DNA of 64,000 bases from Candidatus Parcubacteria bacterium (GTDB taxonomy: Bacteria > Patescibacteriota > Patescibacteriia > UBA1558 > GWA2-36-10). Both the position numbers and the translations under genes were made by a program. Shown piece by piece: positions 1,831-61,760 of this stretch. Where the stretch lies: assembly GCA_018664825.1 (NCBI GenBank), contig JABJNO010000002.1, forward strand, positions 14,068 through 78,067, given 5' to 3'. Numbering within the stretch: the stretch's first letter is position 1; each line of letters opens with the position of its first letter. A model generated the notes under the pieces. The model ran no database searches and was not told the origin of the DNA. It saw nothing but the letters and a program-made list of their open reading frames with translations.

Positions 1831-1948
1831 AGAGTTTTGTTTCTTAATTTTTGAAAACACTAATCTTGAACATGGTATCATAGAAAAGTTGAGCAGTCAA
1901 TCCCTAACATTGCTAGCTCTCGAATGCTTTGCTATATTTAAGCCATGA

Positions 1949-2025: not shown

Positions 2026-3601
2026 GAAACCAAATTTTAATAAAATCACAACTCAACCTGGAATATACTTTTTCCTCAATAAAAACGGGGATATTATTTA
2101 TATTGGTAAAGCCAAAAATATATTTAAACGAGTAAAGTCATATTGGCAAAAAGGATCCGAACTGACCGAGCAAAAACAACAGATGGTCAGTGAAATAAGC
2201 AAGGTCCAATTTACCGTTGTTGATAATGAAACCGAAAGCTTACTTCTCGAAGCATCACAAATAAAAAAATATCAACCAAAATATAACATCGTTTTAAAAG
2301 ATGATAAAAATTGGGGTTACATAGTAATCCTGGACGAGCCCTTTCCTAGGATAGTAGTCACCCATGGACGTCAACGTAGAAAGGGACAACACTTTGGACC
2401 TTATACCTCTACTCTATCAGCTCGCACAACGGTTAGATTTTTACATCGTGTCTTGCCTCTGCGTACCTGCAACAGAAATTTATCTCACCTTCCCAAAGGA
2501 AAAATATGCCTAGAATATCACATGCACCGTTGTCCTGGTCCTTGCGAAAAACTAATCAACAATAATGATTATAAAAAAATAATAGACTCTGCCAAAAAAA
2601 TATTACGTGGCCAGACAAAAGACATAGAAAAAAATCTACGCACACAAATCAGTACTGCTAGTAAAAACAAAAATTTTGAGCTAGCCAATATAAAAAAGAA
2701 GCAACTAGCTGCCCTACAAAGGATAAAGCTCAAACAAAAAATAATCAGCCAGGTAAATATCAATCAAGACATAATCAACCTCAGTAGTATCGGACAAAAA
2801 ACCATCCTTACTTTGATGACTGTCCGCAAGGGAATACTTGGAGACAAATTTAATTTTACAATTGACAACAAACTAAGCCTTCCTGACAAAGAAATATTCC
2901 AAAATTTTATCAACCAGTTTTATACTCACAAAGCTGATTTGCCAAAAAATATTATCCTGCCAACCAAAATAAACAAAAATCAAACACTCTTGGAGAAAAA
3001 TATAAAAATAATACTACCGCAAAGAGGAAAAAATAAAGACTTACTCGCTTTGGTCAAAAAAAATGCCGACCTGGTCGCTGATAGAATGTCTATAAATCCA
3101 AATATCAAAAAACTTTTATCTTTACAAAAACTTTTGAAGCTAAGTGGTTTCCCCAAACGAATAGAGGTATACGATATTTCAAATATATCAGGTGAACACG
3201 CCGTAGGCTCTATGGTGGTGTTCAATAATGGCCAAATTGACAGCGATCAATATCGTTTATTTAAAATAAAAGGAATACCTGGACCAAACGACGCTCATAT
3301 GATGGCCCAAGTTCTATCTCGTCGCAGCAAACATAGTGAGTGGACCACTCCTGATTTGATTATTTTGGATGGAGGAAAGCCACAACTAAACACCGTGATG
3401 CCCGTCTTACCAAAAAATTGGAAAAATAAAATAATAGCCTTGGCTAAAAAAGAAGAAGAAATATTTTTACCAGGCATAAAAAAATCCCTAAAACTAACTA
3501 AAAGTAACCCCATTTCACTGATGTTGCAAAATATGCGTAATCAAGCTCACAAGTTTGCTATCAAAAACTACCGTAAGCAACATCAAAAAAACTGGTTATA
3601 A
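2024..3601 (+). CDS. uvrC: Excinuclease ABC subunit C (UvrC), short form with GIY-YIG and RNase H-like domains; GTG start
   Basis: The N-terminus carries a GIY-YIG motif (GIYFFLNKNGDIIYIGKAKNIFKRVKSYW). ITTQPGIY aligns with the UvrC N-terminus. At 525 aa the protein probably lacks the C-terminal HhH pair. Confidence 0.85.
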   Translation: MKPNFNKITTQPGIYFFLNKNGDIIYIGKAKNIFKRVKSYWQKGSELTEQKQQMVSEISKVQFTVVDNETESLLLEASQIKKYQPKYNIVLKDDKNWGYIVILDEPFPRIVVTHGRQRRKGQHFGPYTSTLSARTTVRFLHRVLPLRTCNRNLSHLPKGKICLEYHMHRCPGPCEKLINNNDYKKIIDSAKKILRGQTKDIEKNLRTQISTASKNKNFELANIKKKQLAALQRIKLKQKIISQVNINQDIINLSSIGQKTILTLMTVRKGILGDKFNFTIDNKLSLPDKEIFQNFINQFYTHKADLPKNIILPTKINKNQTLLEKNIKIILPQRGKNKDLLALVKKNADLVADRMSINPNIKKLLSLQKLLKLSGFPKRIEVYDISNISGEHAVGSMVVFNNGQIDSDQYRLFKIKGIPGPNDAHMMAQVLSRRSKHSEWTTPDLIILDGGKPQLNTVMPVLPKNWKNKIIALAKKEEEIFLPGIKKSLKLTKSNPISLMLQNMRNQAHKFAIKNYRKQHQKNWL

Positions 3602-14049: not shown

Positions 14050-14598
14050 ATGAATGGCTTTGAAGGACAATCTAAAGAAAATGTATCTTATCCTGAAAAT
14101 TTGACCCCCCAGGATATAGCCTTGGTATATAGACAATGCGAAATCCAGCATGCTACCAGCGTCGAACAGCTAGAGGGTTTTGCCAATGCCTACTCCAAGG
14201 CCAAGGAGCTGGCTCAGACCCGAGAAAAATTAGACCAACTAACTCCAGAACAAATAGAAGGATTGATTTTGGAATTAGGAGCTTTGACAGAAAAAAGAAA
14301 TCAAAAAGGATTCCGGATTGTACCTGTCACATTTGCAAATGGCTCTCGAGCTATAGAGGCAGACAAAATTCCCCGAGCAATCCAAACATTTGCCCAGGGA
14401 TTCAAATCTTTTTTAGAAAACCCCACTGAAGATGAAAGATTAAATACTGTCTTGTTGTACAAACAATTTGAAGAAATCCATCCATTTGAAGATGGTAATG
14501 GTCGAGTCGGTGATCTTTTGTGGAAAATATTGGAAAGCAAAAAAACAAAACAATGGCCAGAAAAATTGCCACCAGACGTCTTTGGTGAAAACAAATAA
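14050..14598 (+). CDS. Fic/Fido-domain protein (short, 182 aa)
   Basis: Near-canonical Fic motif HPFEDGNGRVGD (HxFx[DE]GNGR) close to the C-terminus. The locus is locally GC-elevated. Confidence 0.6.
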   Translation: MNGFEGQSKENVSYPENLTPQDIALVYRQCEIQHATSVEQLEGFANAYSKAKELAQTREKLDQLTPEQIEGLILELGALTEKRNQKGFRIVPVTFANGSRAIEADKIPRAIQTFAQGFKSFLENPTEDERLNTVLLYKQFEEIHPFEDGNGRVGDLLWKILESKKTKQWPEKLPPDVFGENK

Positions 14599-14602
14599 AT
14601 AT

Positions 14603-15316
14603 ATGAATCAAGTAATCTGTAAAAAACTAATAAAAAACTTAGGTGAAGCCAAGACAATTGTAGGGAACTTTGATGCAACTAAGGTGGCCTCCACAAAATC
14701 TATAGAGGCTAGAAATAGATTGGTTTTTTTATTGGATGAAATAAAATTTTTATTATTGAACAAAGAGTTTTCTAAGCGATATCCTGGAGCCATGATAGAA
14801 AAAATAGACCCAAATAAAATTCCCTCGAACATAATGGATTCATTTGAACATCAAAGTACCATGTATATCCATCCCGATGATTATGAAAAAGGAAATTTTA
14901 TACAATTTTATATTATTCATCGGGTCGACCCTCCTTATACTACCTATGTAGCCGAACAAGATAAAATAATTGATAAAGATGAAAAAGAAGAGATGACTGA
15001 CAAGCTGCATTATTTTATAGATAACCCCGACGACCTGGGGGCCAAAAAGTTAGATGAAATTAGGTTTATCATAGACAATGATAGCTCTTATTTCAAAAAT
15101 AAACCTTTTACTTTTTTTTCAAAAAATGGCACCGATAGATTAAAACTAATGAATGCTTTTTGCCAATCAAGACTAGGACTACCTATGTACTCGGGTACTA
15201 TGTTAGAAGATGAAGAACATGAATTTTGGAAAGAGCTAGTAGAAGAAGGGCTAGCCCAACAATACGAAGAAGAGTCTGGAAGAGATTTAAAAACTAGATA
15301 CAAATTTAAAGATTAA
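14603..15316 (+). CDS. Hypothetical protein
   Basis: The ATG lies 5 nt after the Fic stop codon (the ORF-track N-terminal extension overlaps fic). Acidic C-terminus. No recognised domain. Confidence 0.45.
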   Translation: MNQVICKKLIKNLGEAKTIVGNFDATKVASTKSIEARNRLVFLLDEIKFLLLNKEFSKRYPGAMIEKIDPNKIPSNIMDSFEHQSTMYIHPDDYEKGNFIQFYIIHRVDPPYTTYVAEQDKIIDKDEKEEMTDKLHYFIDNPDDLGAKKLDEIRFIIDNDSSYFKNKPFTFFSKNGTDRLKLMNAFCQSRLGLPMYSGTMLEDEEHEFWKELVEEGLAQQYEEESGRDLKTRYKFKD

Positions 15317-15320
15317 AATT

Positions 15321-15596
15321 ATGAGAACACCAGAAACAGCCCCTGAAAATAGGGAACTCATCGATCTAGGCAATGAATTAGATCGATTACAAGCCCAAGA
15401 AAACCAAGGCCGAGGCATTAGCTGTGTCAAAACAGTAATTGCTTATTTGAAGATGGGCAAGCTAGAAGAGGCTCGCACTGTTTGTCATACCGAACATGAC
15501 AAAATAGTCAGCTACCCTGAAATAAAAAAATTTATAAAAGAAAACCTATTCAAAGGAATGGAAAATCATCCCTGGAAATTTCTCGATAGTTTATAA
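15321..15596 (+). CDS. Hypothetical small protein (91 aa)
   Basis: ORF 4 nt after the previous stop, probably the third gene of the same transcription unit. Confidence 0.4.
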   Translation: MRTPETAPENRELIDLGNELDRLQAQENQGRGISCVKTVIAYLKMGKLEEARTVCHTEHDKIVSYPEIKKFIKENLFKGMENHPWKFLDSL

Positions 15597-15654
15597 AAAT
15601 AAAAAGACCTACTAAACAGTAGATCATAATATAAAAAACTCAATTTATTAAAAG

Positions 15655-16347
15655 TTAAAACCGAGCCTTTCTTTTTGGTTTTTGAACAAGGCAATTTATA
15701 TTCCATTTTGTTTTGTAGATTCCCTTTGGACTCAATACAAATCCCGTCTTACCCAGTGACTCTACTAGTTCATTGGTAGTAAAGCTATGATAAAATCTAT
15801 ATACCACCTCTCCGTTGTTTAGCTTCCATGGAATATAAAAATCACTCCATGAATTTTTTTTCAAAAAGTTCTTGAAAAAATATTTCATATACTTTTTTTG
15901 CCACAGATTCCAGTTTGTCATAAAAAGATAGCCTCCTGGCTTGAGCCATTTGTTTACTCTATAAAGTAGCTTTAACCTTTCGACTCTATTTGGCAAATGA
16001 TGAAAGCTGGCAATCATCAAAACCATATCCATGCTTTCGGGTGGAAAATCTATCCTAGCCATATCATGTACCTTAAAATGAGCTTTGGGATGTTTTATTC
16101 TAGCTTGTTTTATCAGCTCTTCACTAAAATCAACACCCATATAATGATATTTTGTGTCCGTATCTTTGAGTAGATTGAGGATACGCCCATTACCACAACC
16201 AAGGTCTAGTATCTTGTCTTGATCCTTTATATATGGTATAAAGATTTGTAATTCCTCCCAAGGAAAAACACGGGAAGCAGAAAACTCCCCTGAAATCAGA
16301 TTATAAACTTTTTGTAAATTATTTTTGATCAAATCACTTTTATCCAT
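15655..16347 (-). CDS. Class I SAM-dependent methyltransferase, Trm9/ALKBH8-like (candidate tRNA cm5U34 methyltransferase)
   Basis: Motif I ILDLGCGNGRIL. Trm9-type motifs IASFHHLPNRVERL (compare Trm9 AVVHHWSTRERR), IPW, and the C-terminal YRFYHSFTTNELVE (compare Trm9 YRFYH..GELEE). The start is taken at the internal Met (MDKSDLIKNN); the longer ORF-track extension overlaps the divergent elp3. Confidence 0.6.
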   Translation of the reverse strand: MDKSDLIKNNLQKVYNLISGEFSASRVFPWEELQIFIPYIKDQDKILDLGCGNGRILNLLKDTDTKYHYMGVDFSEELIKQARIKHPKAHFKVHDMARIDFPPESMDMVLMIASFHHLPNRVERLKLLYRVNKWLKPGGYLFMTNWNLWQKKYMKYFFKNFLKKNSWSDFYIPWKLNNGEVVYRFYHSFTTNELVESLGKTGFVLSPKGIYKTKWNINCLVQKPKRKARF

Positions 16348-16348
16348 A

Positions 16349-17959
16349 ATGGAAAATAATAAAGAAAAATTATTAGAAAAAATAGTCCTCGAGCTGGCTG
16401 ATAAAAAATATCCAGTTGATTTAGATTTTATGAAAGCCTCACGACAAGTATTTAGTAAATACAAGCTCACTCCTGTACCAAAATCTGAACTCATTAAAGT
16501 ATATCGCAGATTGACCAAAGAGGGCAAATTGAAATCCGACAAAAGGTTTACCCAGCTCCTCGTCAAACGAGCGGTGCGCTCACTTTCTGGTGTTTCTGTC
16601 ATCACCGTCTTGTCAAAACCATTTGTCTGTCCAGGCAAGTGTGTCTACTGCCCAACTGAACCAGACATGCCAAAGAGCTATTTATCAAATGAGCCAGCTG
16701 CAGCTCGTGCCAAAATAAATCTTTTTTCTCCAATCAGGCAGGTAACCATGCGCATCAAGGCACTAGAAAACAATGGCCATCTAGTAGACAAGCTAGAGGT
16801 GCTGGTCTTGGGTGGTACCTGGTCTGTTTATCCAAGTAAATACCAAGATGACTTTATAAGAGATTTGTTTTTTGCTGCCAATACTTATGGAGAAGATAAA
16901 AAACGTGATCCACTGACCCTAGAAGAAGAACAAGCTATAAACGAAACAACCAAATACAAAATAATCGGCCTAACCCTAGAAACTCGTCCTGATTATATAA
17001 ATGAAACTGAAATAAAAAAACTTCGTCGTCTCGGTACTACTCGAGTTCAAATCGGAGTCCAGCATACTGACAACAAAATACTAGATTTGATAGTACGTGG
17101 TCACTCTATAGAAGAAAGTATCCGAGCTACCAAAATGCTCAAAGAGGCTGGCTTCAAAGTAGACCATCACTACATGCCCGATCTACCCGGCTCTACACCC
17201 AAAAAAGATTTGGAGATGTTTGAATATGTTTATAGCTCCCAGGACTTACAACCTGACCAAGTAAAAATCTACCCCTGCGTGGTCAATGAATATGCCGAGC
17301 TATATGATTGGTACAAAAAAGGTAAATACAAACCTTATTCTGAGAGTGAGCTTTTGGAATTATTGCTAAAAATAAAAATCATAACTCCTCCTTATGTCAG
17401 AATAAACAGGTTGATACGAGACATACCCGAAGAAAGTATTATAGCCGGAAACAAAATCACAAACCTACGACAATATTTACAAAATGAATTACAAAAACGT
17501 AATCAATCTTGCCAATGCCTGCGTTGTCGCGAAGTCCGTGGTGATTCCCAAGACGCAGACAAGGCTATTTTGGTAAAAAGAGAGTACAAAGCTTCTGATG
17601 GACAAGAAATATTTTTGAGCTACGAAAGTCCTGACAACAAAAAGGTCTATGCTTTTTTGAGACTTCGTATAAATGAAAATCCAAAAGAAAATATTTTCCC
17701 TGAACTAAAAAATGCCTCTATAGTCAGAGAGCTACACGTCTATGGTCAGATGATACCAGTCTATAGTGAAGACCAGGATGATGAAGTCTCTCAAACCCAG
17801 CACTTGGGCCTAGGTAAAAAGCTAATGGCTGAAGCAGAAAAAATAACTAAAGAAACCAAACTAAATAAAGTAGCCGTTATCTCTGGGATTGGAGTCCGAA
17901 ATTATTATAAAAAACTTGGGTACCAACTAGAGGGTACATATATGACCAAGTCTTTATAA
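16349..17959 (+). CDS. elp3: Elongator protein 3 homolog (radical SAM + C-terminal GNAT; tRNA uridine34 carboxymethyl transferase)
   Basis: The radical-SAM cysteine cluster SKPFVCPGKCVYCP is embedded in an Elp3-specific context. The C-terminal GNAT domain (...HLGLGKKLMAEAEK...GIGVRNYYKKLGYQLEGTYM) is also Elp3-like. The length from this start is 536 aa. Confidence 0.8.
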   Translation: MENNKEKLLEKIVLELADKKYPVDLDFMKASRQVFSKYKLTPVPKSELIKVYRRLTKEGKLKSDKRFTQLLVKRAVRSLSGVSVITVLSKPFVCPGKCVYCPTEPDMPKSYLSNEPAAARAKINLFSPIRQVTMRIKALENNGHLVDKLEVLVLGGTWSVYPSKYQDDFIRDLFFAANTYGEDKKRDPLTLEEEQAINETTKYKIIGLTLETRPDYINETEIKKLRRLGTTRVQIGVQHTDNKILDLIVRGHSIEESIRATKMLKEAGFKVDHHYMPDLPGSTPKKDLEMFEYVYSSQDLQPDQVKIYPCVVNEYAELYDWYKKGKYKPYSESELLELLLKIKIITPPYVRINRLIRDIPEESIIAGNKITNLRQYLQNELQKRNQSCQCLRCREVRGDSQDADKAILVKREYKASDGQEIFLSYESPDNKKVYAFLRLRINENPKENIFPELKNASIVRELHVYGQMIPVYSEDQDDEVSQTQHLGLGKKLMAEAEKITKETKLNKVAVISGIGVRNYYKKLGYQLEGTYMTKSL

Positions 17960-17988
17960 TTGACAAGGCCCTAAAAATAATATATATT
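17960..17988 (+). promoter_or_regulatory. Near-consensus sigma70 promoter (TTGACA-17-TATATT)
   Basis: TTGACA at 17960-17965 and TATATT at 17983-17988, immediately after the elp3 stop. A strong SD (CCAGGAGG at 18021-18028) lies 7 nt upstream of the GTG at 18036. Confidence 0.55.
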
Positions 17989-18035
17989 ACGTAGTTCGTA
18001 CTTTCCAAATAGCCAACTAACCAGGAGGTTTCCTT

Positions 18036-18500
18036 GTGAAACAAAAGATGAAGATGAAGATCCAAGATGGCGTTGTCTCGTTTGACAGCAGTGATACTCG
18101 AGATGAATTTCTCGGTTTCCTGCGCAAGCTGGCTAGTGATGATCCTCTGATCAGACAAGCAATAATCCCCATCATCGAGCACGAAGGTATCATCCCTGAT
18201 GCTGATATGAGTTTTACGGAACTAGTCCGTAATCTCGGCACCAACATCCACAAAGTTCCTGAAAGAATATTTGCCCTCTGGAATAAGATGCACGGTCAGA
18301 CATCTGACCCTACTAGTAAACATGTGATGAACACTCGTCAAGCCGCTGATTATACCAAACGCGACCCCTCTACCATGGCCCGCCTAGCTCACACAGGCAT
18401 CATCCCCGCCACCAAAATCAAAGGTCGCTGGCAATTTACTCGCCGTTCTCTCAACACCTTCCTAAGCAAACATGGCTATCTAACCTCAGCTCGAGGCTAA
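18036..18500 (+). CDS. Excisionase-family helix-turn-helix DNA-binding protein (GTG start), in a GC-elevated segment
   Basis: The C-terminal 45 aa (RQAADYTKRDPSTMARLAHTGIIPATKIKGRWQFTRRSLNTFL) match the excisionase/MerR-like HTH pattern (..G.IP..KIGRRW.F....L..WL). GC is about 47% against about 33% in the surroundings. Confidence 0.55.
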   Translation: MKQKMKMKIQDGVVSFDSSDTRDEFLGFLRKLASDDPLIRQAIIPIIEHEGIIPDADMSFTELVRNLGTNIHKVPERIFALWNKMHGQTSDPTSKHVMNTRQAADYTKRDPSTMARLAHTGIIPATKIKGRWQFTRRSLNTFLSKHGYLTSARG

Positions 18501-18508
18501 AACAAAAA

Positions 18509-18535
18509 CCCCCGTCAATGAACGGGGGTTTTCTA
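18509..18535. terminator. Bidirectional intrinsic terminator between convergent genes
   Basis: Perfect 7-bp G/C stem cccccgt/acggggg, 6-nt loop, A-run upstream and T-run downstream. Confidence 0.7.
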
Positions 18536-18547
18536 TTTTACAAAATT

Positions 18548-20578
18548 TTATTGTTGAGATGGTCTAATACTTGGATCTACTGGATCCACCGGATCTATAT
18601 TGTCTAAGATATCTTTTAAGTCTGACCAATCATCTATACATTTTTTATCCAAACATAACTGACCAGTATTTATTCCTTGTTCTGTAAAAGTTACAGCATT
18701 GCTTCCGTGCCAAAAATTTAAGTTTCCAGATCTATTATCTTGATAAATCCCCCAATGAGTATTGTCTCCTGATTGCAGATCAATTTCTGCATTTTCTGTT
18801 TCAGAATATATATCCAATGTTCTTTCTGGATATGCTTTATTAATACCAATCTTTCCACTAGAGTGAGCTGTAAACAATGGTTTACTTGGTGCTCCAGGAG
18901 CATCGCTATCAGCCACTACTCTAAAAGCAGAAACAGGATCATCGTTGTTTGCGTCTATAGCTATTCCTACATCCAAAAATGAACTAATCATCAAACCGCC
19001 CCAACCACCACTGATTGGTCCAATTTTTGATTGATTACCTTGTCCAATTAATAGTTCTCCACCGTTGTCTACTAGTAAATCACCATCAAAGTAGCCTGCA
19101 TAAGAATTTTCCCCATTTGCCTTGGCATAAACTGCTAATGAATCATCGCCATTTGATTTAAACACACCAGCCTTACCACCAAGCACCTCTGTCTGGGCCA
19201 TAATAGCCGCACTATAAGGTCTACCTGTATCTGTTACTCCTAAGGCCGCTATTCCTGTTATTGGATTTCCTTCTATGGCAGATAAATTACCAATCATTAC
19301 ATCACCATCAAACCAACCAGCCCAAGCTCCACCCGTTGCATTAGCAATCAAGGCTTTACTATTTTCACCACTAGCAGAAAGAGCCGCTGCTGATGAACTA
19401 GCCGCGCCTACAAAGGAACTAAAGTTATTTCTATTTGGCTCTATTGTTCCTAATGTTATATGTTTTGCAAATAAGTCTTCTGTGAAATTGGCATCACTAC
19501 GGAAATACACAGCCTCAGCACTTGATTTTATATTGTCTACTTCTAGGTCTCCATTTGTTATTTTTACTGGCCCATCAAAAAATCCAGCCGTACTACTAGA
19601 GATAGCATACAAGGCTGTACCGCCCACACCATTAGCTTGAAAAAATCCAGCCTTGGCATCATTACCATTGGCGCCAGCACTAAGTGCTATACCACCTGGG
19701 TTTTCATCAAGGACTGTCAATCTACCCGGAAGAGCTGGGCCCATGTGCAGGTCCTCGGTTATAACTACACTACCATCGAACTTACCAGCTAGCTCTCCGG
19801 CAAAAGCCTGACCATAAACACCAATGCCGCCTGGATAATTGGCTACACCAAGCACACCAGTATGCCCAGATCCAAATAAACCTGCTCCACCTGTCTCACT
19901 TGTTGACCAACCACGGACAGCGTTGCCATATGCATGTACATTTAAACCTGTATCTCCTTCATAATCTATCTCAACTTGACCATCAAACTTACCAGCATAA
20001 GAATTATTACCATCCGCATGACCATAAATTGCATTTGAATCCTCAGCATTAGCATAGGCCATTATAGCATCTTGACCAAAATCTAGACCTACTGCGCTAA
20101 CGCGTAAAGCTCCTTCTTGAGCTGAATCATGAAAACTACCTATGGTGGCTCCATTTTCTACACTAAGAAAATTTTCCACTCCCCAGCTTCCGTATAAAAA
20201 ACTTTTTTCACTTGCTGAATTTGAAAATGAATAACCACCCAAGTCCAAATCGACCGTCATCGGATTGTTCACATAAGAACCAGGCAATGTATCTATACCC
20301 CCATCATCAATAGAAATTGAGTTGATTTGATTTTCTAAAGTGTTTATTTTCTTTTCTAAATCAGAGACATCCTTCTGAAGAACGCCAGTAGTATCAAGTG
20401 CTTCTACAGTATTGAGCTCCAAAGTACGAGCTATCCCAGCATTGTAGCCCTGATAATAACTGATTCTTTCTTTGTCTTTTGAACCAAAAAAATCTACCGC
20501 CAAACTTTGTTGTGGTAGAGACATGGTCACAAAAATAGTTAGAACTAAAAATGAATTAAATAATTTTGTGCCTTTCAT
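18548..20578 (-). CDS. Large secreted glycine-rich repeat protein (putative surface or fibre-like protein)
   Basis: N-terminal signal peptide, a coiled-coil segment (LEKKINTLENQINSI), five or more repeats of the form aGxFDGxVxI (YAGKFDGQVEI, LAGKFDGSVVI, TAGFFDGPVKI, WAGWFDGDVMI, YAGYFDGDLLV), and a C-terminal PVDPVDP tail. Confidence 0.6.
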   Translation of the reverse strand: MKGTKLFNSFLVLTIFVTMSLPQQSLAVDFFGSKDKERISYYQGYNAGIARTLELNTVEALDTTGVLQKDVSDLEKKINTLENQINSISIDDGGIDTLPGSYVNNPMTVDLDLGGYSFSNSASEKSFLYGSWGVENFLSVENGATIGSFHDSAQEGALRVSAVGLDFGQDAIMAYANAEDSNAIYGHADGNNSYAGKFDGQVEIDYEGDTGLNVHAYGNAVRGWSTSETGGAGLFGSGHTGVLGVANYPGGIGVYGQAFAGELAGKFDGSVVITEDLHMGPALPGRLTVLDENPGGIALSAGANGNDAKAGFFQANGVGGTALYAISSSTAGFFDGPVKITNGDLEVDNIKSSAEAVYFRSDANFTEDLFAKHITLGTIEPNRNNFSSFVGAASSSAAALSASGENSKALIANATGGAWAGWFDGDVMIGNLSAIEGNPITGIAALGVTDTGRPYSAAIMAQTEVLGGKAGVFKSNGDDSLAVYAKANGENSYAGYFDGDLLVDNGGELLIGQGNQSKIGPISGGWGGLMISSFLDVGIAIDANNDDPVSAFRVVADSDAPGAPSKPLFTAHSSGKIGINKAYPERTLDIYSETENAEIDLQSGDNTHWGIYQDNRSGNLNFWHGSNAVTFTEQGINTGQLCLDKKCIDDWSDLKDILDNIDPVDPVDPSIRPSQQ

Positions 20579-20684: not shown

Positions 20685-21947
20685 ATGGAAAATATAAACT
20701 CTACAGATCCAAAGATCGCTGAGATCTTGAAAAAAGAATTGGATCGTCAAAGACACGGAGCAGAGATGATTGCTTCGGAAAATTTTGTTTCCCCTGCTGT
20801 TTTAGAGGTTGCCGGCAGTGTCCTGACCAACAAATATGCCGAGGGCTACCCCAACAAAAGATATTATGGTGGCAATGAGTTTATCGATTTATCAGAACAA
20901 CTAGCCATCGACCGAGCCAAGGAGCTTTTTGGAGCCGAACACGCCAATGTCCAGCCTCATGCTGGTAGTCCAGCCAACGCTGAGGCATATTTTGCACTAG
21001 CTGAACTTGGTGATACCATCCTAGGCTTTTCACTAGCCCATGGTGGTCATCTGACCCACGGACACCCAGTCAATTTTTCAGGAAAATTTTATAACTTTGT
21101 TCACTACGGAGTAGACAAAGAAAAAGAGCTCATAGATATGAATCAAGTGCGTGAACTAGCCCTAAAACATAAACCAAAGATTATCTTGGCTGGAGCCTCT
21201 GCTTATTCTCGTAAAATAGATTTCAAGCCTTTCCGAGAAATCGCTAATGAAGTTGGTGCTTATCTGATGGTAGACATGGCTCATATCGCTGGACTAGTAG
21301 CTGTCGGTCTCCATCCTGACCCTGTACCATATAGTGATGTAGTGACAACGACTACTCACAAAACTCTACGTGGTCCAAGAGGGGCAATGATTTTGTCAAA
21401 AATAGAAGATAGATTAAATCCAAAAGACAAAAAAAACCTAGCTCAAAAAATAGACTCAGCTGTCTTCCCTGGTATGCAAGGCGGTCCGCTAGAACATATC
21501 ATAGCTGCCAAAGCAGTTGCTTTTGGCGAAGCTCTAAAACCAGAATTTAAAAAATATCAGGCTCAAGTAATCAAAAACTGTAAAGTACTAGAAGACAATT
21601 TTCGTGAAGCTGGTATCCGCATGGTCTCAGATGGTACAGACAATCACCTCTTGATGATCGATGTCAGTACTATAGGACTAGGTGGTAAAGAAGCAGAAAC
21701 TTTACTTGATAAAGTACATATCTTTACAAACAAAAATATGATTCCATTTGATAAAGGTACTCCGTTTAAGCCTTCTGGTATCCGCCTCGGTACTGCTGCC
21801 CTGACTACTCGTGGCCTCAAAGAATCTGAAATAGAACTTGTAGCCTCTGTCATGATAAAAACCCTAAAAGATAAAAAGGCAACTGACGAAAATAAAAATA
21901 AGATAATTGAATTGATGAAACAATTTGAATTGTATCCACAATTATAA
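20685..21947 (+). CDS. glyA: Serine hydroxymethyltransferase
   Basis: The N-terminal region matches the GlyA pattern; 420 aa. Confidence 0.9.
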
Positions 21948-21952
21948 AAAAT

Positions 21953-22798
21953 ATGAACAAAATGATTGATGGCAAAAAACTTGCCGAAAACATCCAGGTA
22001 GAAATAAGTAAAGAAATATTCCAAAAAGGCATCAGACCTAGTTTGGCAGTTGTTTTGGTAGGAGATGATCCGGCTAGCAGACTTTATGTAAACCTCAAAA
22101 AGAAAGCCAGTCAAAAAGTAGGTATTGATTTCCATGAATATCTTTTGGTCAAAAAATCTACCGAACAAGAAGTCCTAGAAACTATAGATTTTTTAAATAA
22201 AGACAAAGATATAGATGCTATATTGATTCAACTACCACTACCAAAGCATTTTGATACTGACAAAATCATCCAGGCTATGGATCCAGCCAAAGATGTCGAT
22301 GGATTTCATCCAGCTAGTATAAAAAAGTTTCTAAAAGGTCAATCTGGTTTTGTGCCGGGCTTGGCTCTAGGAATTTTTAAACTAATCAAAAGCACGGAAG
22401 AAGAACTCAAAGGTAAAAACGCTGTCATCGTAGCCAAGAGTGATATCCTCTACCAACCAGTAGCCAAATTACTAAACGATCAAGGTGTAGCTACCGCTAT
22501 TGTCCGTCCAGATGACAGAAACCTAAAAGACGAAACAATAAAAGCTGACATTTTGATAGTGGCTTGTGGTTCTCCATTTTTTATCAAAGAGGATATGGTC
22601 AAACAAGATTCTATTGTGATAGATGTGGGCACCAACAAAATAGACAATGATTATATTGTGGGTGACGTAGACTATACAAATGTATTCCAAAAGGCCAAAT
22701 TTATCACGCCGGTCCCAGGAGGAGTCGGACCAATGACCGTAGCAATGCTACTCTACAATACTCTCCAACTAGCTGAAAATAAAAAAACCGCCGAATAG
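21953..22798 (+). CDS. folD: Bifunctional methylenetetrahydrofolate dehydrogenase/cyclohydrolase
   Basis: N-terminus MIDGKKLAENIQVEISKEI and a FolD-typical length, 5 nt after glyA. Confidence 0.85.
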   Translation: MNKMIDGKKLAENIQVEISKEIFQKGIRPSLAVVLVGDDPASRLYVNLKKKASQKVGIDFHEYLLVKKSTEQEVLETIDFLNKDKDIDAILIQLPLPKHFDTDKIIQAMDPAKDVDGFHPASIKKFLKGQSGFVPGLALGIFKLIKSTEEELKGKNAVIVAKSDILYQPVAKLLNDQGVATAIVRPDDRNLKDETIKADILIVACGSPFFIKEDMVKQDSIVIDVGTNKIDNDYIVGDVDYTNVFQKAKFITPVPGGVGPMTVAMLLYNTLQLAENKKTAE

Positions 22799-23883: not shown

Positions 23884-23920
23884 AGCGGGCTGGAAAAATT
23901 TCCAGCCCGCTCTTTATTTT
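23884..23920. terminator. Bidirectional intrinsic terminator
   Basis: Perfect 10-bp stem agcgggctgg/ccagcccgct, 8-nt loop, A-run before and T-run after. It lies between convergent genes. Confidence 0.75.
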
Positions 23921-24704
23921 ATAATAATGTATTTTGCCAACTATCCATCTTACCTCCCAGTTTGAGATCTTTTATCCTGTCAATATCAAACATTCTTATA
24001 GCCTGTCGGAGATGACAGTAGGCTTTTATTTTATTTCCGGTAATTCGCTGAACATCAATCTTTCTTGAGGTGGTTTTGCCTGATTCATCCATATACTCTA
24101 TTTCCAACTGATCACCGTCTTTGAGGGCATCATGGACTTTTTGCTCAACTGTCCGACCATTGTTGTTGCCCCAACGAGCAATTATCTTTTCTTTGTGTCC
24201 AGAATTTTGATACCACATATGACCATGCTTCAAACCATAATCATATACTTCTTTGGTGACTTTGACATCATCTAAACAATACCTTATCAGATTGTCCCAA
24301 TCTTCATTGCGGTAATACACGATAGCATCAAGACCAGAGCCAGATTTGCCATAGCCTAGTGTGCTCTGTGCTACACTCTCTAGTTTCAGTCTATGCCCCA
24401 AAGCATGAACTACTTCTTCCAAGATATCCAAGTGAGGTATAGTAGATAAATCAAAATCTTTGTAATATGGCTGAAGAGCGGTATTATCAAAACTCTTACT
24501 ATTGAAACCGATCAACAATTCTGTATTTTTAAATATCTCCAAAAGCTCCCCAAACTCCTCTTCTTTGAAAGCACGATATTGATCTCTATTATAAGAATAA
24601 ATACCAACCACGGATACTTCCATTTTATCAATATGATCATAACCACCGACCTCGTCAAAGGTCTTTTTGGTTTCTAAATCAAATACTATTTTATCTTTTT
24701 TCAT
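23919..24704 (-). CDS. PolB-type (DEDDy) 3'-5' exonuclease fused to a C-terminal WYL-like domain
   Basis: Exo I FDLET, Exo II GFNSKSFDNTAL and Exo III YCLDDV (YxxxD) are all present. The C-terminal ~80 aa (LEIEYMDESGKTTSRKIDVQRITGNKIKAYCHLRQAIRMFDIDRI) fit the WYL-domain core pattern (..WYLvAyc.lrg.fRtFrldRI). Confidence 0.55.
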   Translation of the reverse strand: MKKDKIVFDLETKKTFDEVGGYDHIDKMEVSVVGIYSYNRDQYRAFKEEEFGELLEIFKNTELLIGFNSKSFDNTALQPYYKDFDLSTIPHLDILEEVVHALGHRLKLESVAQSTLGYGKSGSGLDAIVYYRNEDWDNLIRYCLDDVKVTKEVYDYGLKHGHMWYQNSGHKEKIIARWGNNNGRTVEQKVHDALKDGDQLEIEYMDESGKTTSRKIDVQRITGNKIKAYCHLRQAIRMFDIDRIKDLKLGGKMDSWQNTLL

Positions 24705-24736
24705 AACGCATTATATTATAACAAAATTTTGAAAAA

Positions 24737-26794
24737 TTACCAGTTATCGACGTCAGGCAAGAAGCCATCGCTTCTTTCGTTTTTTTCATGATCCTCAAAA
24801 TCTCCATCGGACTCATAAGACACTCCATCACCACTAGCATAAGTAATATTCCTTGATAGCTCATTGTGATTCAAAAGATTGCCATCTATGTCTGATATAA
24901 AAATTGAAGGCTGCATGCTTTTGTGTCCATCAAATCTATAAACCGACATCGGATAAGTGAGATAGAGGTGCTTCATGGCCCTAGTGATAGCCACATAGAG
25001 CAATCTTCTTTCTTCTTCTTGCTCGTGTTCGGTCACAGCTAGTGGATGTGGGAAAGATTGAGTGGTCAAATTCATAATAAACACCGCTGGCCACTCCAAT
25101 CCTTTTGATTGATGGACTGTACTCAATACCACTACATCATTGTCCTGCTTTTGAGCCTGTCTGACTGTAAAATTTTCTTGCAAACTTACTTCTGTCAAAA
25201 ATGAGCCTAAATCATCATAAGATGAAGCAAAGGCCGCCAACTGCCCCAAATCATCTTCACGTTGATAATGATCGGGAAATTTTTCTATCAAATAATCTCG
25301 GTATTTTTCATTGACTGCTTTTATCAATTCTCCAATATTTTTTTGTTTTTGATGGAAAAGACTAGATAACACTTCATTTACCTTATTCCAACTTTGTGTT
25401 GCTTTTTCTGATAGTTTTGGTTTTACTCCTGGCAATTCCTCCAAAGTTTTTATCTGTGATGTTTCTGTAATTATTTTTTTAGCAGTTGCTGGACCCACTC
25501 CTTCATAAAGTTGCAGAACTCTTTGCCAAGATATAGCATCTTTATGATTATACAAAATCCTTAGCCAGGCTGCCACGTCTTTGATGTGTGCTCTTTCAAA
25601 AAATTTCAAACCACCGCGCATCTCATAGTCTATACCTCTTTTGTTGAGCTCCATTTCAAGTGATTGAGAATGGTGAGCTGCTCGAAATAATATCGCTATT
25701 TGTTTTGGTCTCAATCCATCAGCCATCAAGCCTTGGATCCTATCGGTAATCATGATAGCCTCTTCTATATTGTTGCGCACAGCTGACAACTCGGGCCTAG
25801 TATAACTAGGCAAAACAGCTGATAATTTTTTTGTAAATTGTTTTTTATTTTTAGATATAACATTATTGGCCAGATTCAAAATCTCTGGTGTAGAACGATA
25901 ATTTGTTTCTAGCTTGTGGGTTTTAGCATTTTTAAATTTTTTGGGGAAATCCAAAATATTTCTGATATCAGCCGCCCTAAAAGAATAAATACTCTGAGCA
26001 TCATCGCCTACTGCCAAAATATTTTGATGGCTTTCAGCTAGATTATAAACAATCTCCGCCTGGACTGTATTTGTATCTTGATACTCATCTACCAAGATAT
26101 AATCCCACTTGGCATCAAGGATAGGACCTATCTTTGGATGCTCAGTCAAAGTTTTCCAAAATGATAACAAGTCATCAAAATCCAAAAGACTATTGGCTTG
26201 TTTTCTTTTTTTGTACTCAGCTAGAACTTTTTCAAAAAATTCTACTATTGGTAGCCATTCCGGAAACTTGGCGTCTAGACTTTCCTCTACCTTGATACCT
26301 GAATTGATCGCAAAACTAATCACCTCGCTGATTATAGCTGGTGAGGGTTTACTTTTGTCTGGCAAATTTCCAAAAAGCTCTTTACTTATATTTTTGAGTA
26401 GAGTTTTTTTGTCTTCTTGATCCAAGATTGCAAAACCAGGTTCAACACCAATATGCTTTCCGTATATTCGAAGTAATCGATTGCCCACTGAATGAAAAGT
26501 ACCTCCCCAAAGAGAGAGTTTATTGTCCTTCTGTAAACCTATGAGATTTTTTACTCGCTCCATCATCTCGGCTGCCGCCTTGTTGGTAAAGGTGAGTAGT
26601 AATATCCTCTCTGGCTTGATACCTTGTTCCAAGAGCCAGGCCACCCGATAGGTCAATGTACGCGTCTTACCGCTACCTGCTCCTGCTAAAACCAAATGAG
26701 GCCCATCACCTGCTGTGACGACCTCGTGTTGTGCTGAATTTAGCTCTTTTTCAAAATCAATTTTAATCATAGTAGACATATTATAACCAATCAT
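24737..26794 (-). CDS. UvrD/PcrA/Rep-family ATP-dependent DNA helicase
   Basis: Walker A LVLAGAGSGKTRTLTYRVAWLL, a UvrD-like helicase C-terminal domain, 685 aa. The start may be the internal MSTMIKIDF at 26776. Confidence 0.85.
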   Translation of the reverse strand: MIGYNMSTMIKIDFEKELNSAQHEVVTAGDGPHLVLAGAGSGKTRTLTYRVAWLLEQGIKPERILLLTFTNKAAAEMMERVKNLIGLQKDNKLSLWGGTFHSVGNRLLRIYGKHIGVEPGFAILDQEDKKTLLKNISKELFGNLPDKSKPSPAIISEVISFAINSGIKVEESLDAKFPEWLPIVEFFEKVLAEYKKRKQANSLLDFDDLLSFWKTLTEHPKIGPILDAKWDYILVDEYQDTNTVQAEIVYNLAESHQNILAVGDDAQSIYSFRAADIRNILDFPKKFKNAKTHKLETNYRSTPEILNLANNVISKNKKQFTKKLSAVLPSYTRPELSAVRNNIEEAIMITDRIQGLMADGLRPKQIAILFRAAHHSQSLEMELNKRGIDYEMRGGLKFFERAHIKDVAAWLRILYNHKDAISWQRVLQLYEGVGPATAKKIITETSQIKTLEELPGVKPKLSEKATQSWNKVNEVLSSLFHQKQKNIGELIKAVNEKYRDYLIEKFPDHYQREDDLGQLAAFASSYDDLGSFLTEVSLQENFTVRQAQKQDNDVVVLSTVHQSKGLEWPAVFIMNLTTQSFPHPLAVTEHEQEEERRLLYVAITRAMKHLYLTYPMSVYRFDGHKSMQPSIFISDIDGNLLNHNELSRNITYASGDGVSYESDGDFEDHEKNERSDGFLPDVDNW

Positions 26795-27968: not shown

Positions 27969-28715
27969 ATGTCCGACAAGAAAATTATTGCCGTTTTGCC
28001 AGCCTACAACGCTGCTAAAACACTAAAGCTAACTTTGGATGATATACCAGAGGGTAGTGTAGACGAAATCATACTCGTAGACGATTGTTCACAGGACAAC
28101 ACAGTAGAAGTGGCCAAACAGCTAGGCATAAAAGTTATTGTTCACGAAAAAAATAAGGGCTATGGTGGCAACCAAAAAACTTGTTATCGCGAAGCTCTCA
28201 AAAGTGGAGCTGATATTGCCATCATGATTCACCCTGACCATCAATACAATCCAAAGTTGGTTCCTCAGATGCTAAAACCACTGATAGACGAAGAGTGTGA
28301 TGCTGTATTTGGATCTAGGATGATCTACAAAAAAGATGCCTTAGCTGGCGGTATGCCAAAATGGAAATTTGCTGCCAATATTTTCCTAACCAGTTTAGAA
28401 AATATTTTATTGGGCACAAAACTAGCAGAATACCACTCAGGATTTAGAGCTTATTCAAAAAAAGCCTTGGAGACTCTACCACTAGAAGAAAACTCAGATA
28501 ATTTTGTTTTTGATACAGAAATCATTGTCCAACTTGTGGCCAATGATTTTAAAATAAAAGAAATCCCTATCAATACAAAATATTTTAAAGATGCCTCAAA
28601 CGTTGGTCTAAAACAAGGCATGAAATATGGTACTGATATATTGCGTACAATGGGCAAATATAAATTGCACCAATGGGGAATCAAAAAAAGATCTCAATTT
28701 AAAAAAGTCACTTAA
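27969..28715 (+). CDS. GT2 glycosyltransferase, polyprenyl-phosphate sugar synthase-like (DPM1/Ppm1-like)
   Basis: VLPAYNAAKTL...DEIILVDDCSQD (DxD-type GT-A); 248 aa with no TM segment. Confidence 0.7.
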   Translation: MSDKKIIAVLPAYNAAKTLKLTLDDIPEGSVDEIILVDDCSQDNTVEVAKQLGIKVIVHEKNKGYGGNQKTCYREALKSGADIAIMIHPDHQYNPKLVPQMLKPLIDEECDAVFGSRMIYKKDALAGGMPKWKFAANIFLTSLENILLGTKLAEYHSGFRAYSKKALETLPLEENSDNFVFDTEIIVQLVANDFKIKEIPINTKYFKDASNVGLKQGMKYGTDILRTMGKYKLHQWGIKKRSQFKKVT

Positions 28716-37285: not shown

Positions 37286-37343
37286 AAGAATATTATAAAA
37301 TAAAGCGGCCGAGTTCGTCAAAGATGAACTCGGCCGTAAAAAC

Positions 37344-61685: not shown

Positions 61686-61760
61686 TGGTGACCCCACGGA
61701 GAATCGAACTCCGGTTGCTAGGATGAAAACCTAGTGTCCTAACCACTAGACGATGGGGCC
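61686..61760 (-). tRNA. tRNA-Glu (anticodon UUC), CCA encoded
   Basis: Minus strand GGCCCCATCGTCTAGTGGTTAGGACACTAGGTTTTCATCCTAGCAACCGGAGTTCGATTCTCCGTGGGGTCACCA folds into a cloverleaf (7-bp acceptor stem, 4-bp D stem, 5-bp anticodon and T stems) with anticodon loop TTTTCAT. Confidence 0.85.

Follow-up and report, generated by a model that had tools for sequence, protein, structure and literature searches.

The Locus

The locus described here lies in a 64-kb window, that is, the whole 64,000-nucleotide stretch of Candidatus Parcubacteria DNA that was analyzed, and consists of two divergently oriented genes encoding a homolog of Elp3 and a methyltransferase resembling Trm9. Their coordinates, together with those of the functional motifs and of the only tRNA gene in the window, are collected in Table 1.

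Table 1. Features of the elp3–methyltransferase locus and the tRNA gene of the window.
Feature	Position	Strand	Remarks
Trm9-like class I SAM methyltransferase gene	15655..16347	-	230 aa; predicted cm5U34 to mcm5U34 methyl esterase
elp3	16349..17959	+	536 aa; homolog of the radical-SAM and GNAT tRNA U34 carboxymethyl (cm5U) synthase, with a basic N-terminal extension
Start-codon junction, CAT-a-ATG	16345..16351	both	Divergent starts 1 bp apart: CAT 16345-16347 (minus-strand ATG from 16347), one base, ATG 16349-16351; plus strand ...tatcCATaATGgaaaat...
-10-like hexamer TATTAT	16356..16361	-	Within elp3 codons 3-5, its end 9 nt ahead of the methyltransferase ATG
Terminator-like hairpin and T-run	15606..15625	-	30 nt past the methyltransferase stop; 8-pair stem, tail TTTTTATTTT
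SAM-binding motif I, LDLGCGNG	16186..16209	-	Methyltransferase residues 47-54; Pfam Methyltransf_25/11 region
H116-H117 (ScTrm9 H115/H116)	15997..16002	-	Alignment with Trm9; ScTrm9 H116A inactive in yeast
R184-F-Y186 of YRFYH (ScTrm9 R241/Y243)	15790..15798	-	R241A and Y243A lose activity in yeast
Radical-SAM [4Fe-4S] motif, C94-x3-C98-x2-C101	16628..16651	+	KPFVCPGKCVYCP in the Elp3 translation
GNAT acetyl-CoA motif, QHLGLG	17798..17815	+	Elp3 residues 484-489; aligns with QHMGYG of M. infernus Elp3
tRNA-Glu(UUC)	61686..61760	-	ARAGORN; Rfam tRNA 62.5 bits; sole tRNA in the window

The Elp3 Homolog

The plus-strand product was recognized by the NCBIfam ELP3 model TIGR01211 with a score of 536.4 bits (cutoff 350), the match joining residues 27–536 to positions 17–522 of the 522-position model. 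PDB searches returned M. infernus Elp3 as the best hit (2e-117), as well as Dehalococcoides mccartyi Elp3 (DmcElp3, PDB 5L7J; 3.5e-109, a core match over query residues 73–535) and eukaryotic Elp3 (~1e-92), and the archaeal, bacterial, and eukaryotic structures match the protein over its full length. Both Pfam Radical_SAM and Radical_SAM_C exceeded their cutoffs, and the three cysteines of the [4Fe-4S] motif are present in all 67 Elp3 proteins from related loci. This CX3CX2C motif aligns with CPHGKCIFCP of M. infernus Elp3 but is one residue shorter, the archaeal protein having one residue more before the second cysteine.

In the C-terminal domain, Q484, H485, G489, and Y519 are found in 67/67 relatives and G487 in 66/67, and the conserved tyrosine pair at residues 519–520 aligns with M. 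infernus Elp3. The Pfam GNAT model alone scored below its cutoff (18.2 versus 23.6), which is common for so divergent a domain. The linker carries a zinc-binding Cys triad (C388, C390, C393; 66/67 relatives), which is a conserved feature of archaeal and bacterial Elp3 (PMC6367351), and 21 of the first 80 residues are lysine or arginine. Judged by these matches, the gene encodes a full-length Elp3 with its catalytic motifs retained. This agrees with the initial sequence-only reading, which had proposed a complete radical-SAM and GNAT protein; the radical-SAM and GNAT catalytic residues, on whose presence that reading had been made to depend, and the zinc-binding Cys triad are invariant in 66–67 of the 67 relatives.

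The Trm9-Like Methyltransferase

Only generic Pfam families (Methyltransf_25/11/31) were assigned to the minus-strand product, in whose SAM-binding motif I residues D48, G50, C51, and G52 are invariant in the homolog alignment. There is no Trm9-specific model in Pfam or NCBIfam and hence no curated threshold for this protein; all NCBIfam equivalogs with a match remained below their cutoffs, the best being the DVU_1556 family (59.8 of 155 bits), alongside Tam (49.9 of 297), BioC (49 of 185), and UbiE (46.6 of 216). A PDB search with the single sequence placed Trm9 (5cm2_Z) at the top, over residues 25–216, and a search with the family profile again returned this structure (3.3e-29, 105 bits), the runner-up reaching 1.5e-21 and 80 bits. 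When aligned by hhalign to 16 fungal Trm9 sequences, 206 of the 230 columns were matched with a probability of 100 and E = 1.5e-39, at a sequence identity to Trm9 of ~27%. The control alignment with E. coli CmoM gave E = 2.5e-8 over 127 columns confined to the Rossmann, SAM-binding half (residues 13–144), while the C-terminal, substrate-binding half aligned with Trm9 alone. The AF2 model of the protein has a pLDDT of 93.3, and many unrelated methyltransferases are among its structural neighbors. In public annotation, NCBI names it "class I SAM-dependent methyltransferase" and JGI labels some family members TRM9 or ALKBH8. In these searches the closest solved relative of the methyltransferase is Trm9.

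Mutagenesis of ScTrm9 has identified eight residues whose replacement by alanine abolishes or strongly reduces activity, namely R29, D72, H116, W145, W168, R241, Y243, and N271 (PMC4678810). All eight have equivalents in the window protein: R26, D73, H117, W146, W174, R184, Y186, and N216, respectively. Among 80 relatives, R26, D73, and W146 are present in every sequence, H117 in 76 (Gln in the other four), N216 in 77, and R184 in 75, with an aromatic residue at W174 in 79; position 186 is Tyr in 56 and hydrophobic (V/I/L/F) elsewhere. The preceding H116 is His in 73/80, and Y15, the counterpart of ScTrm9 Y18, which has been modelled beside the cm5U carboxylate (PMC4678810), is present in 78/80. 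Residue Q150 varies among relatives. Positions equivalent to ScTrm9 H24, K31, E148, and D270, mutants of which showed no phenotype (PMC4678810), are not conserved in the window methyltransferase. The motifs FHHLPNRVERL, IPW, and YRFYH, on which the sequence-only reading had based its Trm9/ALKBH8-type assignment, all occur in the translation, and the retained active-site and tRNA-binding residues, together with Trm9 as the best solved relative, support that interpretation.

Dependence on Trm112

The hydrophobic patch through which YlTrm9 binds Trm112 comprises V59, F78, V102, A110, P112, and F116, and was compared here by alignment. The equivalent of V59 is K45, a lysine in 75 of the 80 relatives, and that of F78 is position 68, occupied by D/E/N/S/K in 71; of the remaining positions, 92 and 102 are mixed, 100 is P/D/S/N, and 106 is Phe in 72. 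The two patch positions that border strands beta1 and beta2 are charged or polar almost everywhere. A Trm112-like gene was found neither among the small ORFs of the 64-kb window, nor among the conserved neighbors in 80 loci, nor as a fusion. Because most of the surface that Trm112 would cover is lysine or acidic and there is no Trm112 gene nearby, the methyltransferase probably works alone, independently of Trm112. The pair is better called a candidate module than a "complete" one; Trm112 appears to be dispensable rather than present.

Conservation and Linkage of the Pair

Linkage was assessed across 80 methyltransferase-encoding genomes of Patescibacteria, taken at species level and representing many CPR lineages. 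In 70 of them an Elp3 gene is located no more than 6 kb from the methyltransferase, in 64 in divergent orientation, and at 10 loci none is nearby; the adjacency persists even where methyltransferase identity has fallen to 33% and the rest of the neighborhood differs. Neighbor clustering over the 80 loci revealed no third conserved partner such as Trm112, a thiolase, or an amidase, the next commonest neighbors (glyA, an 88-aa protein, NIF3-like, folD, RtcB, NUDIX, and WecG) each occurring at no more than 21 loci. Some family members are longer through fusion with neighbors (NUDIX, WecG, SET), which is uninformative on function.

The divergence of Elp3 from the window copy follows that of the methyltransferase with a Pearson coefficient of 0.90, and the GC content across the pair (0.34–0.38) is like that of the rest of the window. 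Recent horizontal transfer was considered and ruled out on the grounds of this ordinary GC content and of both proteins diverging in step across lineages. The pair is by these measures a Patescibacteria-wide, co-inherited module and not a sporadic acquisition, the sequence-only reading having left it as either horizontally acquired or ancestral; its conservation in related genomes is borne out. In archaea, none of four Elp3 neighborhoods, examined with a view to transfer of the whole module, contained an adjacent methyltransferase, a sample too small to settle the origin of the pair; since all four lacked it, the abutting divergent layout seems to be specific to Patescibacteria. Literature searches found nothing relevant on Elp3 or Trm9 in CPR/Patescibacteria or on MnmE/MnmG in CPR, and no paper describing a bacterial Elp3–Trm9 pair.

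The Start-Codon Junction and Expression

The spacing of the two start codons noted in the sequence-only reading (16347 on the minus strand, 16349 on the plus strand) is confirmed by the sequence itself and recurs in the independent JGI and Logan assemblies, in which the methyltransferase of 230 aa and the Elp3 of 536 aa are likewise separated by 1 bp. The minus-strand ORF remains open as far as a TTG at 16638 (327 aa), and the 230-aa product starting at 16347 is the version for which 28 homologs give an end-to-end alignment. The start codons of the 64 divergent relatives are a median of 1.5 bp apart and overlap as CATG at 17 loci, CATATG being found at 8, and in 33/64 loci the junction ATG is offset from the partner ATG by exactly -2, 0, or +1 to +3 bp. 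The 1-bp spacing is neither a product of chance nor a genome-wide feature, because 50–227 bp separate the remaining divergent pairs of the window and the abutting layout recurs in dozens of distant genomes. Given the median gap and the 17 CATG overlaps, both junction ATGs are genuine starts, and each promoter has to sit within the partner gene. Two explanations had initially been offered for the lack of intergenic space: that of promoters inside the partner gene is upheld by the conserved abutting starts, whereas that of a start further downstream, for example at the internal Met of Elp3 at 16430 (residue 28), is rejected.

The TATTAT hexamer (Table 1) may be a promoter element for a leaderless or near-leaderless methyltransferase transcript, a tentative assignment consistent with similar hexamers ending 7–9 nt ahead of several other start codons of the window. 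A consensus promoter scan of positions 15400–18200 yielded 11 sites compared with 8.6 ± 2.9 in shuffled sequences, which is not above controls, and a position-specific logo of the 33 tight junctions displayed AT-richness only, with no fixed -10 box. Shine-Dalgarno (SD)-like motifs precede 2 of the 51 genes in the window, and neither the elp3 nor the methyltransferase ATG is among these; the anti-SD motif is absent in about half of Parcubacteria (PMC9297842). Terminator-like sites numbered five, compared with 1.7 ± 1.2 in shuffles.

Proposed Pathway

We consider it likely that the two genes make up an archaeal/eukaryotic-type module in this Parcubacteria (Patescibacteria/CPR) bacterium, modifying the wobble uridine in two steps. 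Briefly, the stand-alone Elp3 would use its basic N-terminal extension to bind U34 tRNAs, cleave SAM at its [4Fe-4S] cluster, and use GNAT-bound acetyl-CoA to install a carboxymethyl group on C5 of U34, yielding cm5U, as its family membership suggests. The Trm9-like enzyme would then use a second SAM-dependent step to methylate the carboxylate, converting cm5U to the mcm5U34 methyl ester, probably without a Trm112 activator; this assignment draws on the conserved catalytic residues and the gene linkage. A candidate substrate of the pair is the tRNA-Glu(UUC) of the window, which is of the U34 tRNA type bearing xm5(s2)U in all domains.

Transcription is envisaged as divergent, with each promoter within the first codons of the other gene because the start codons abut or overlap. 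The mRNAs of this nearly SD-free organism would probably be leaderless or carry very short A/U-rich leaders, and one small control region would thereby couple expression of both enzymes. By extension, mcm5U is probably made across a large bacterial branch, the CPR. Rather doubtful, and offered tentatively, is the broader proposal that much of Patescibacteria/CPR uses an Elp3–Trm9 route for split-box U34, replacing or operating beside MnmE–MnmG. On this view mcm5(s2)U would belong to the bacterial modifications, these organisms would possess a naturally Trm112-independent Trm9, and the CATG overlap would form a conserved bidirectional unit with leaderless-type promoters inside partner genes.

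Alternative Interpretations

An unlikely alternative is that the methyltransferase is tied to Elp3 and yet does not make mcm5U, acting instead on another Elp3-derived intermediate or atom so that the final base is another, possibly undescribed, xm5U derivative. Linkage to Elp3 shows cooperation and not chemistry, the low identity to Trm9 and the variability of Y186 and Q150 leave room for such a change, and the branching of the pathway at cm5U is not settled even for yeast and H. volcanii (PMC3110198). In these two organisms cm5U does not accumulate and there is an extra branch to ncm5U (PMC3110198, PMC6144793), for which reason the end product here could differ from mcm5U. On the other hand, the most conserved positions of the family correspond to ScTrm9 Y18, R29, H115/H116, R241, and N271, residues that in Trm9 models surround the carboxylate of cm5U and the methyl group of SAM, which is the pattern expected from the same substrate and the same reaction. 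It is harder still to regard the protein as a generic small-molecule or other-RNA methyltransferase of the UbiE, BioC, or CmoM kind whose adjacency to elp3 is meaningless. The generic Pfam and NCBI names, the weak UbiE, BioC, and Tam matches, and the unrelated structural neighbors would suit this view, which we hold to be extremely improbable: every NCBIfam equivalog falls 100–250 bits short of its cutoff, only Trm9 extends into the C-terminal half, and Elp3 stays adjacent in 70/80 genomes though other neighbors change. Membership in the UbiE, BioC, Tam, or CmoM families was rejected accordingly, the first three being far below cutoff and the CmoM similarity not full length, and the methyltransferase thus does not side with the UbiE or small-molecule enzymes against which the Trm9 assignment had initially been set.

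The main activity of the Elp3 protein might also be protein (lysine) acetylation or be directed at an RNA other than tRNA, with the methyltransferase modifying that same target. Older annotation made Elp3 a histone acetyltransferase, a name that some databases still use, but bacterial, archaeal, and eukaryotic Elp3 are genuine tRNA modifiers that hydrolyze acetyl-CoA only in response to tRNA (PMC6367351), and the partner methyltransferase keeps the tRNA-binding residues of Trm9, which leaves this possibility barely conceivable. Very unlikely, too, is an error in one of the start codons, such as an Elp3 beginning at Met28, with an ordinary intergenic promoter region between the genes. Residues 1–16 of Elp3 are poorly conserved, the TIGR01211 match begins only at residue 27, and neither ATG is preceded by an SD motif; close relatives nevertheless align from residue 17, upstream of Met28, and in most relatives neither ORF offers a possible start ahead of the junction ATG. 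A later methyltransferase start is impossible, the invariant Y15 and R26 lying near the N-terminus and the next Met being residue 70, and the missing SD is uninformative in a genome where such motifs are absent throughout, the public gene calls agreeing with the junction starts.

Comparison with Known Systems

The window pair shares both catalytic families and their active-site residues with the eukaryotic route, in which Elongator (Elp1–6) is followed by Trm9–Trm112 (ALKBH8–TRMT112 in animals), and the predicted two-step chemistry, U34 to cm5U to mcm5U, is alike. Unlike its eukaryotic counterpart, however, the window Elp3 stands alone without Elp1, 2, 4, 5, and 6, the Trm112 patch of the methyltransferase is mostly Lys/Asp/Glu, and the genes are paired and divergently oriented, which those of eukaryotes are not. 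Archaeal Elp3 is likewise stand-alone, with a basic N-terminal extension and the zinc-binding Cys triad, and the H. volcanii Trm9 ortholog HVO_1032 forms mcm5U from cm5U (PMC6144793). Archaeal Trm9 requires Trm112 for solubility and in vivo activity (PMC6144793), whereas the window methyltransferase is probably Trm112-independent. Clustering of Elp3 and Trm9 genes has been reported for one archaeon, Sulfolobus solfataricus; the host here, in contrast to the archaea, is a bacterium with QueA/QueH, TsaD/TsaE, and TrmB.

Among bacterial enzymes, the characterized DmcElp3 is also stand-alone but lacks the extended N-terminus found in the window protein and in most archaeal Elp3s (PMC6367351). It has been described as a rare bacterial example, a methyltransferase partner not being discussed (PMC6367351), whereas the window Elp3 belongs to a clade-wide two-gene module. 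The MnmE–MnmG (+ MnmC) system, which produces cmnm5U/mnm5U, targets the same C5 atom of U34, probably in the same tRNAs (Glu, Lys, Gln, and others), and serves the same role in split-codon-box decoding, yet its enzymes, a GTPase and a flavoprotein that draw on methylene-THF and glycine, are unrelated, as are its products; no mnmE, mnmG, or mnmA gene was found within the 64-kb window. The E. coli CmoA/CmoB/CmoM pathway (cmo5U to mcmo5U) also ends with SAM-dependent methyl esterification of a wobble-uridine carboxylate by a class I methyltransferase, but the oxyacetic acid side chain is made by different enzymes and the likeness of CmoM to the window protein does not reach beyond the SAM-binding half.

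Significance

In a 2020 catalog of modified nucleosides, cm5U, mcm5U, and ncm5U are assigned to Archaea and Eukarya, with Bacteria having only cmnm5U, mnm5U, and nm5U (PMC7694415), and bacterial Elp3 has so far ranked as a rare oddity for which no downstream partner is known (PMC6367351). If the proposed pathway is correct, the question of what bacterial Elp3 makes physiologically would become answerable, and structural studies would have at their disposal a small Trm9, probably independent of Trm112, that is expected to be soluble by itself. The conserved overlap of divergent starts in an SD-less genome would likewise offer a compact natural test case for bidirectional, probably leaderless promoters within coding sequence. 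For the organisms themselves, it would mean that a major bacterial radiation decodes with a "eukaryote-like" wobble base, which would add one more trait to the archaea-like features of CPR translation.

Gene models of the divergent pair

The single base that the sequence-only reading placed between the two start codons is present (tatcCATaATGgaaaat, window positions 16341-16356), with the ATG of the methyltransferase read on the minus strand from 16347 and that of elp3 on the plus strand from 16349, and all peptide motifs cited in that reading were found in the translations. Mechanically, both frames extend further, for elp3 to an in-frame TTG 8 codons upstream of the ATG and for the methyltransferase to a TTG at 16638. 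The methyltransferase model aligns over its full length with 28 homologues, and their N-termini lie within 3 residues of its own; independent JGI and Logan gene calls from the same organism give 230-aa and 536-aa products 1 bp apart. A publicly available ENA contig from this organism (locus L086, 3390-4999) splits elp3 into calls of 482 and 54 aa, which indicates a frameshift or assembly error near the 5′ end; elp3 is intact in two other assemblies. A protein identical to the methyltransferase has been deposited under "Candidatus Parcubacteria bacterium". The G+C content of the window is about 36% throughout, and the pair shows no anomaly.

Coordinates of features in the window
Feature	Position	Strand	Remark
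Short ORFs only	1-2180		no Rfam match
UvrC-like gene	called from 2183		472 aa by first ATG
Flank of the pair	14050-15596	+	poorly conserved
Trm9-like methyltransferase	15655-16347	-	230 aa
elp3	16349-17959	+	536 aa
Flank of the pair	18036-20578		poorly conserved
One-carbon metabolism (glyA, folD)	20685-22798	+	
UvrD-type helicase, RNase H-like + WYL protein	23919-26794	-	
SD/hexamer survey example	23919-24704	-	
SD/hexamer survey example	27969-28715	+	
SD/hexamer survey example	36245-37285	-	
SD/hexamer survey example	55389-56432	-	
Bacterial-type tRNA modification genes	36245-38299	-	
Bacterial-type tRNA modification genes	54957-57201		
Valyl-tRNA synthetase	51893-54739	-	948 aa
Class II tRNA-synthetase core	57372-58376	+	334 aa

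Identity of the Elp3 protein

The proposed full-length Elp3 scores 536 bits against NCBIfam TIGR01211 (cutoff 350) over residues 27-536, and its whole catalytic core matches the solved structures from M. infernus (2e-117) and D. mccartyi (3.5e-109) as well as Elongator of yeast and of human or mouse (about 1e-92). Cysteines C94, C98, and C101 of the radical-SAM motif are intact and unchanged in 67/67 related sequences, and the GNAT motif QHLGLG is likewise kept, with Q484, H485, and G489 in all 67 relatives and G487 in 66. Y519 is unchanged throughout the same set, while the neighbouring Y520 is Y in 58 and otherwise F or W. A linker Cys triad (C388, C390, C393), conserved across archaeal and bacterial Elp3 (PMC6367351), was found in 66/67 relatives. 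Residues 1-80 include 21 Lys/Arg, matching the basic N-terminal tRNA-binding extension of archaeal Elp3, unlike Dehalococcoides Elp3, which is without it (PMC6367351). Membership of the Elp3 family is secure because of the model score, the structure matches, the conserved Cys and GNAT motifs, and the basic N-terminus; the protein would be expected to have Elp3 activity.

A methyltransferase of probable Trm9 type

Pfam detects only generic class I domains in the methyltransferase, and neither Pfam nor NCBIfam holds a Trm9-specific model, so membership was judged by other tests. Assignment to UbiE or small-molecule enzymes, which would have counted against the proposal, was set aside, with all NCBIfam equivalogs (UbiE, BioC, Tam, UbiG, and others) 100-250 bits under their cutoffs. 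A Trm9 profile was built by aligning 16 of the named fungal Trm9 proteins retrieved with the Yarrowia sequence, and profile-profile comparison matched the CPR family to it over 206 aligned columns (E = 1.5e-39, probability 100). The control E. coli CmoM, which carries out the corresponding methyl esterification of cmo5U in bacteria, matched the CPR family in the SAM-binding half only (E = 2.5e-8).

Letoquart et al. mutated 15 residues of ScTrm9, with loss of function for R29, D72, H116, W145, W168, R241, Y243, and N271, and tolerated or mild effects for H24, K31, R122, E148, Q149, D270, and H115 (PMC4678810). The eight essential residues align with R26, D73, H117, W146, W174, R184, Y186, and N216 of the window protein. 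Among the best 80 of at least 418 relatives, R26, D73, and W146 are R, D, and W in 80/80, H117 is H in 76 and Q in 4, the W174 position is aromatic in 79, R184 is R in 75, N216 is N in 77, and Y186 is Y in 56 and otherwise V, I, L, or F. The same 80 sequences keep Y15 in 78 cases; its counterpart, ScTrm9 Y18, has been modelled at hydrogen-bonding distance from the cm5U carboxylate (PMC4678810). Conservation in the bacterial family thus follows what matters for Trm9 function, since the essential residues are kept and the positions of H24, K31, E148, and D270 are unconserved.

Eukaryotic Trm9 requires Trm112, as does the archaeal enzyme (PMC6144793). On YlTrm9 this partner covers a hydrophobic patch, whose residues are compared with the bacterial family below. 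Trm112-like genes were found neither among the small ORFs of the window, nor among conserved neighbours of the best 80 loci, nor as fusions. These comparisons suggest that the bacterial methyltransferase would be a stand-alone enzyme working without Trm112; a Trm112 gene elsewhere in the genome is possible.

Trm112-covered residues of YlTrm9 and their bacterial counterparts (counts are for the best 80 of at least 418 relatives)
YlTrm9 residue	Bacterial family
V59	K in 75/80
F78	D/E/N/S/K in 71/80
V102	mixed
A110	polar or Pro
P112	mixed
F116	hydrophobic, F in 72/80

Conservation of the pair

One genome per GTDB species was scanned with the methyltransferase family alignment, which confirmed at least 418 relatives; the best 80 of them are the loci analyzed here. 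Clustered at 50%, the family comprises 196 representatives (E ≤ 1e-30). All 80 loci carry the label of a Patescibacteria lineage or of an unclassified MAG, and the lineages given by name are Komeili-, Gracili-, Peregrini-, Nealson-, Buchanan-, Berkel-, Campbell-, Portnoy-, and Falkowbacteria and Paceibacterota. Conservation of the pair in related genomes, a check that the proposal had called for, was borne out by tblastn: in 70 of these best 80 loci, Elp3 and the methyltransferase lie within 6 kb of each other. The ten without a nearby Elp3 all keep the Trm9 signature, and several have short upstream flanks. Across loci, identity to the window copies is correlated between the two proteins (Pearson r = 0.90), as would be expected of a co-inherited unit, and no other companion gene family occurs in more than 21 of the best 80 loci. 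None of four sampled archaeal Elp3 genes (Methanocaldococcus, Aciduliprofundum, Methanothermus, and an uncultured archaeon) is adjoined by a methyltransferase; Elp3/Trm9 clustering has been reported in Sulfolobus.

Several TPA MAGs titled "uncultured Gammaproteobacteria bacterium" or "uncultured Candidatus Saccharibacteria bacterium" (loci L003, L004, L008, L009, and others) share the junction arrangement and encode both proteins at 50-78% identity to the window copies; their true taxonomy may differ from the record titles. Some family members (P0422, P0445, P0466, P0454) carry a fused SET, NUDIX, or WecG-type glycosyltransferase domain; NUDIX and WecG also appear as downstream neighbours at other loci, and read-through or artefacts of gene calling probably account for the fusions.

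Start-codon junction and promoters

With starts at the relatives' loci set by alignment to the window proteins, the pair is divergent in 64 of the best 80 loci, with a median start-codon gap of 1.5 bp. The starts overlap by two bases (CATG) in 17 loci and form CATATG in 8; the gap is at most 34 bp in 47/64 divergent loci, and the genes are 1.4-2.8 kb apart in only three. At most loci the junction ATG is the earliest possible start of each ORF. The suggestion that one start lies further downstream, for example at the Met at 16430 (residue 28 of Elp3), was ruled out: alignments of close Elp3 relatives begin at residue 17, upstream of Met28, and a later methyltransferase start is impossible because the invariant Y15 and R26 sit near the N-terminus. 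The tight junction is real, specific to the pair, and selectively maintained, judging from its recurrence across loci, the fixed starts, and the spacing of 50-227 bp in the remaining divergent pairs of the window. Given this arrangement, each promoter must lie inside the partner gene, the other option originally offered.

Only 2 of 51 predicted genes in the window carry an SD-like motif, in agreement with published work in which about half of Parcubacteria have lost the anti-SD motif (PMC9297842). In several window genes, a TATAAT-like hexamer ends 6-9 nt ahead of the ATG. A hexamer that near the ATG is the geometry of leaderless mRNA. For the methyltransferase, TATTAT ends at -9, within elp3 codons 3-5, and across relatives A+T makes up 76-86% of the 40 nt preceding each start. 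A generic promoter scan gave no excess over shuffled controls, and the junction logo contains no fixed -10 box. The promoters would probably be of the leaderless type, embedded in the partner's first codons. A terminator-like hairpin lies 3′ of the methyltransferase stop codon.

Other genes of the window

The window is ordinary Patescibacteria housekeeping DNA. The flanks of the pair encode a Fic-domain protein, an excisionase-like HTH_17 protein, two ORFs without a Pfam match, and a 676-aa protein that likewise matches nothing in Pfam and whose N-terminus resembles a signal peptide; all are possible lineage-specific insertions. Among the best 80 loci, glyA (serine hydroxymethyltransferase) occurs within 6 kb of the methyltransferase in 21, and folD near the pair in 15; one-carbon metabolism has no obvious connection with the pair's acetyl-CoA and SAM chemistry. 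The valyl-tRNA synthetase has its catalytic-domain match split into two halves by an ASCH domain (Pfam; residues 478-560, E = 8.8e-7), an unusual site for this RNA-binding domain. The 261-aa RNase H-like and WYL protein lies directly downstream of the UvrD-type helicase on the same strand. The class II (Asp/Lys/Asn-type) core could not accommodate an anticodon-binding domain, and it may be closer to an EpmA/PoxA-like or AsnA-like paralogue than to a full synthetase. The true start of the UvrC-like gene is probably further upstream.

Proposed pathway and its novelty

The sole tRNA in the window, tRNA-Glu(UUC), is a plausible substrate of the pair; mnmE, mnmG, and mnmA are absent from these 64 kb, which speaks for the window only. 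From homology and gene arrangement, the pair probably makes mcm5U34, as originally proposed, the main alternative being a methyltransferase whose substrate is a different Elp3-derived intermediate. The mcm5U34 route would use the same chemistry as the known pathway from Elongator/Elp3 to Trm9.

A 2020 catalogue places the cm5U family in Archaea and Eukarya only (PMC7694415), and bacterial Elp3 has been called rare, without mention of any partner (PMC6367351). Full-text literature search found no papers tying Elp3 or Trm9 to CPR bacteria, and public annotation is partial, with an NCBI naming model for Elp3 and the JGI name TRM9 for a few family members. Genes for QueA, QueH, TsaD, TsaE, and a TrmB-like Methyltransf_4 protein also lie in the window. 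With both kinds encoded there, the organism mixes bacterial with archaeal/eukaryotic-type tRNA modification enzymes. What is new relative to the known pathway is the host domain, Bacteria, and the breadth, and Trm112 independence and overlapping divergent start codons would be variant features of the CPR pair.
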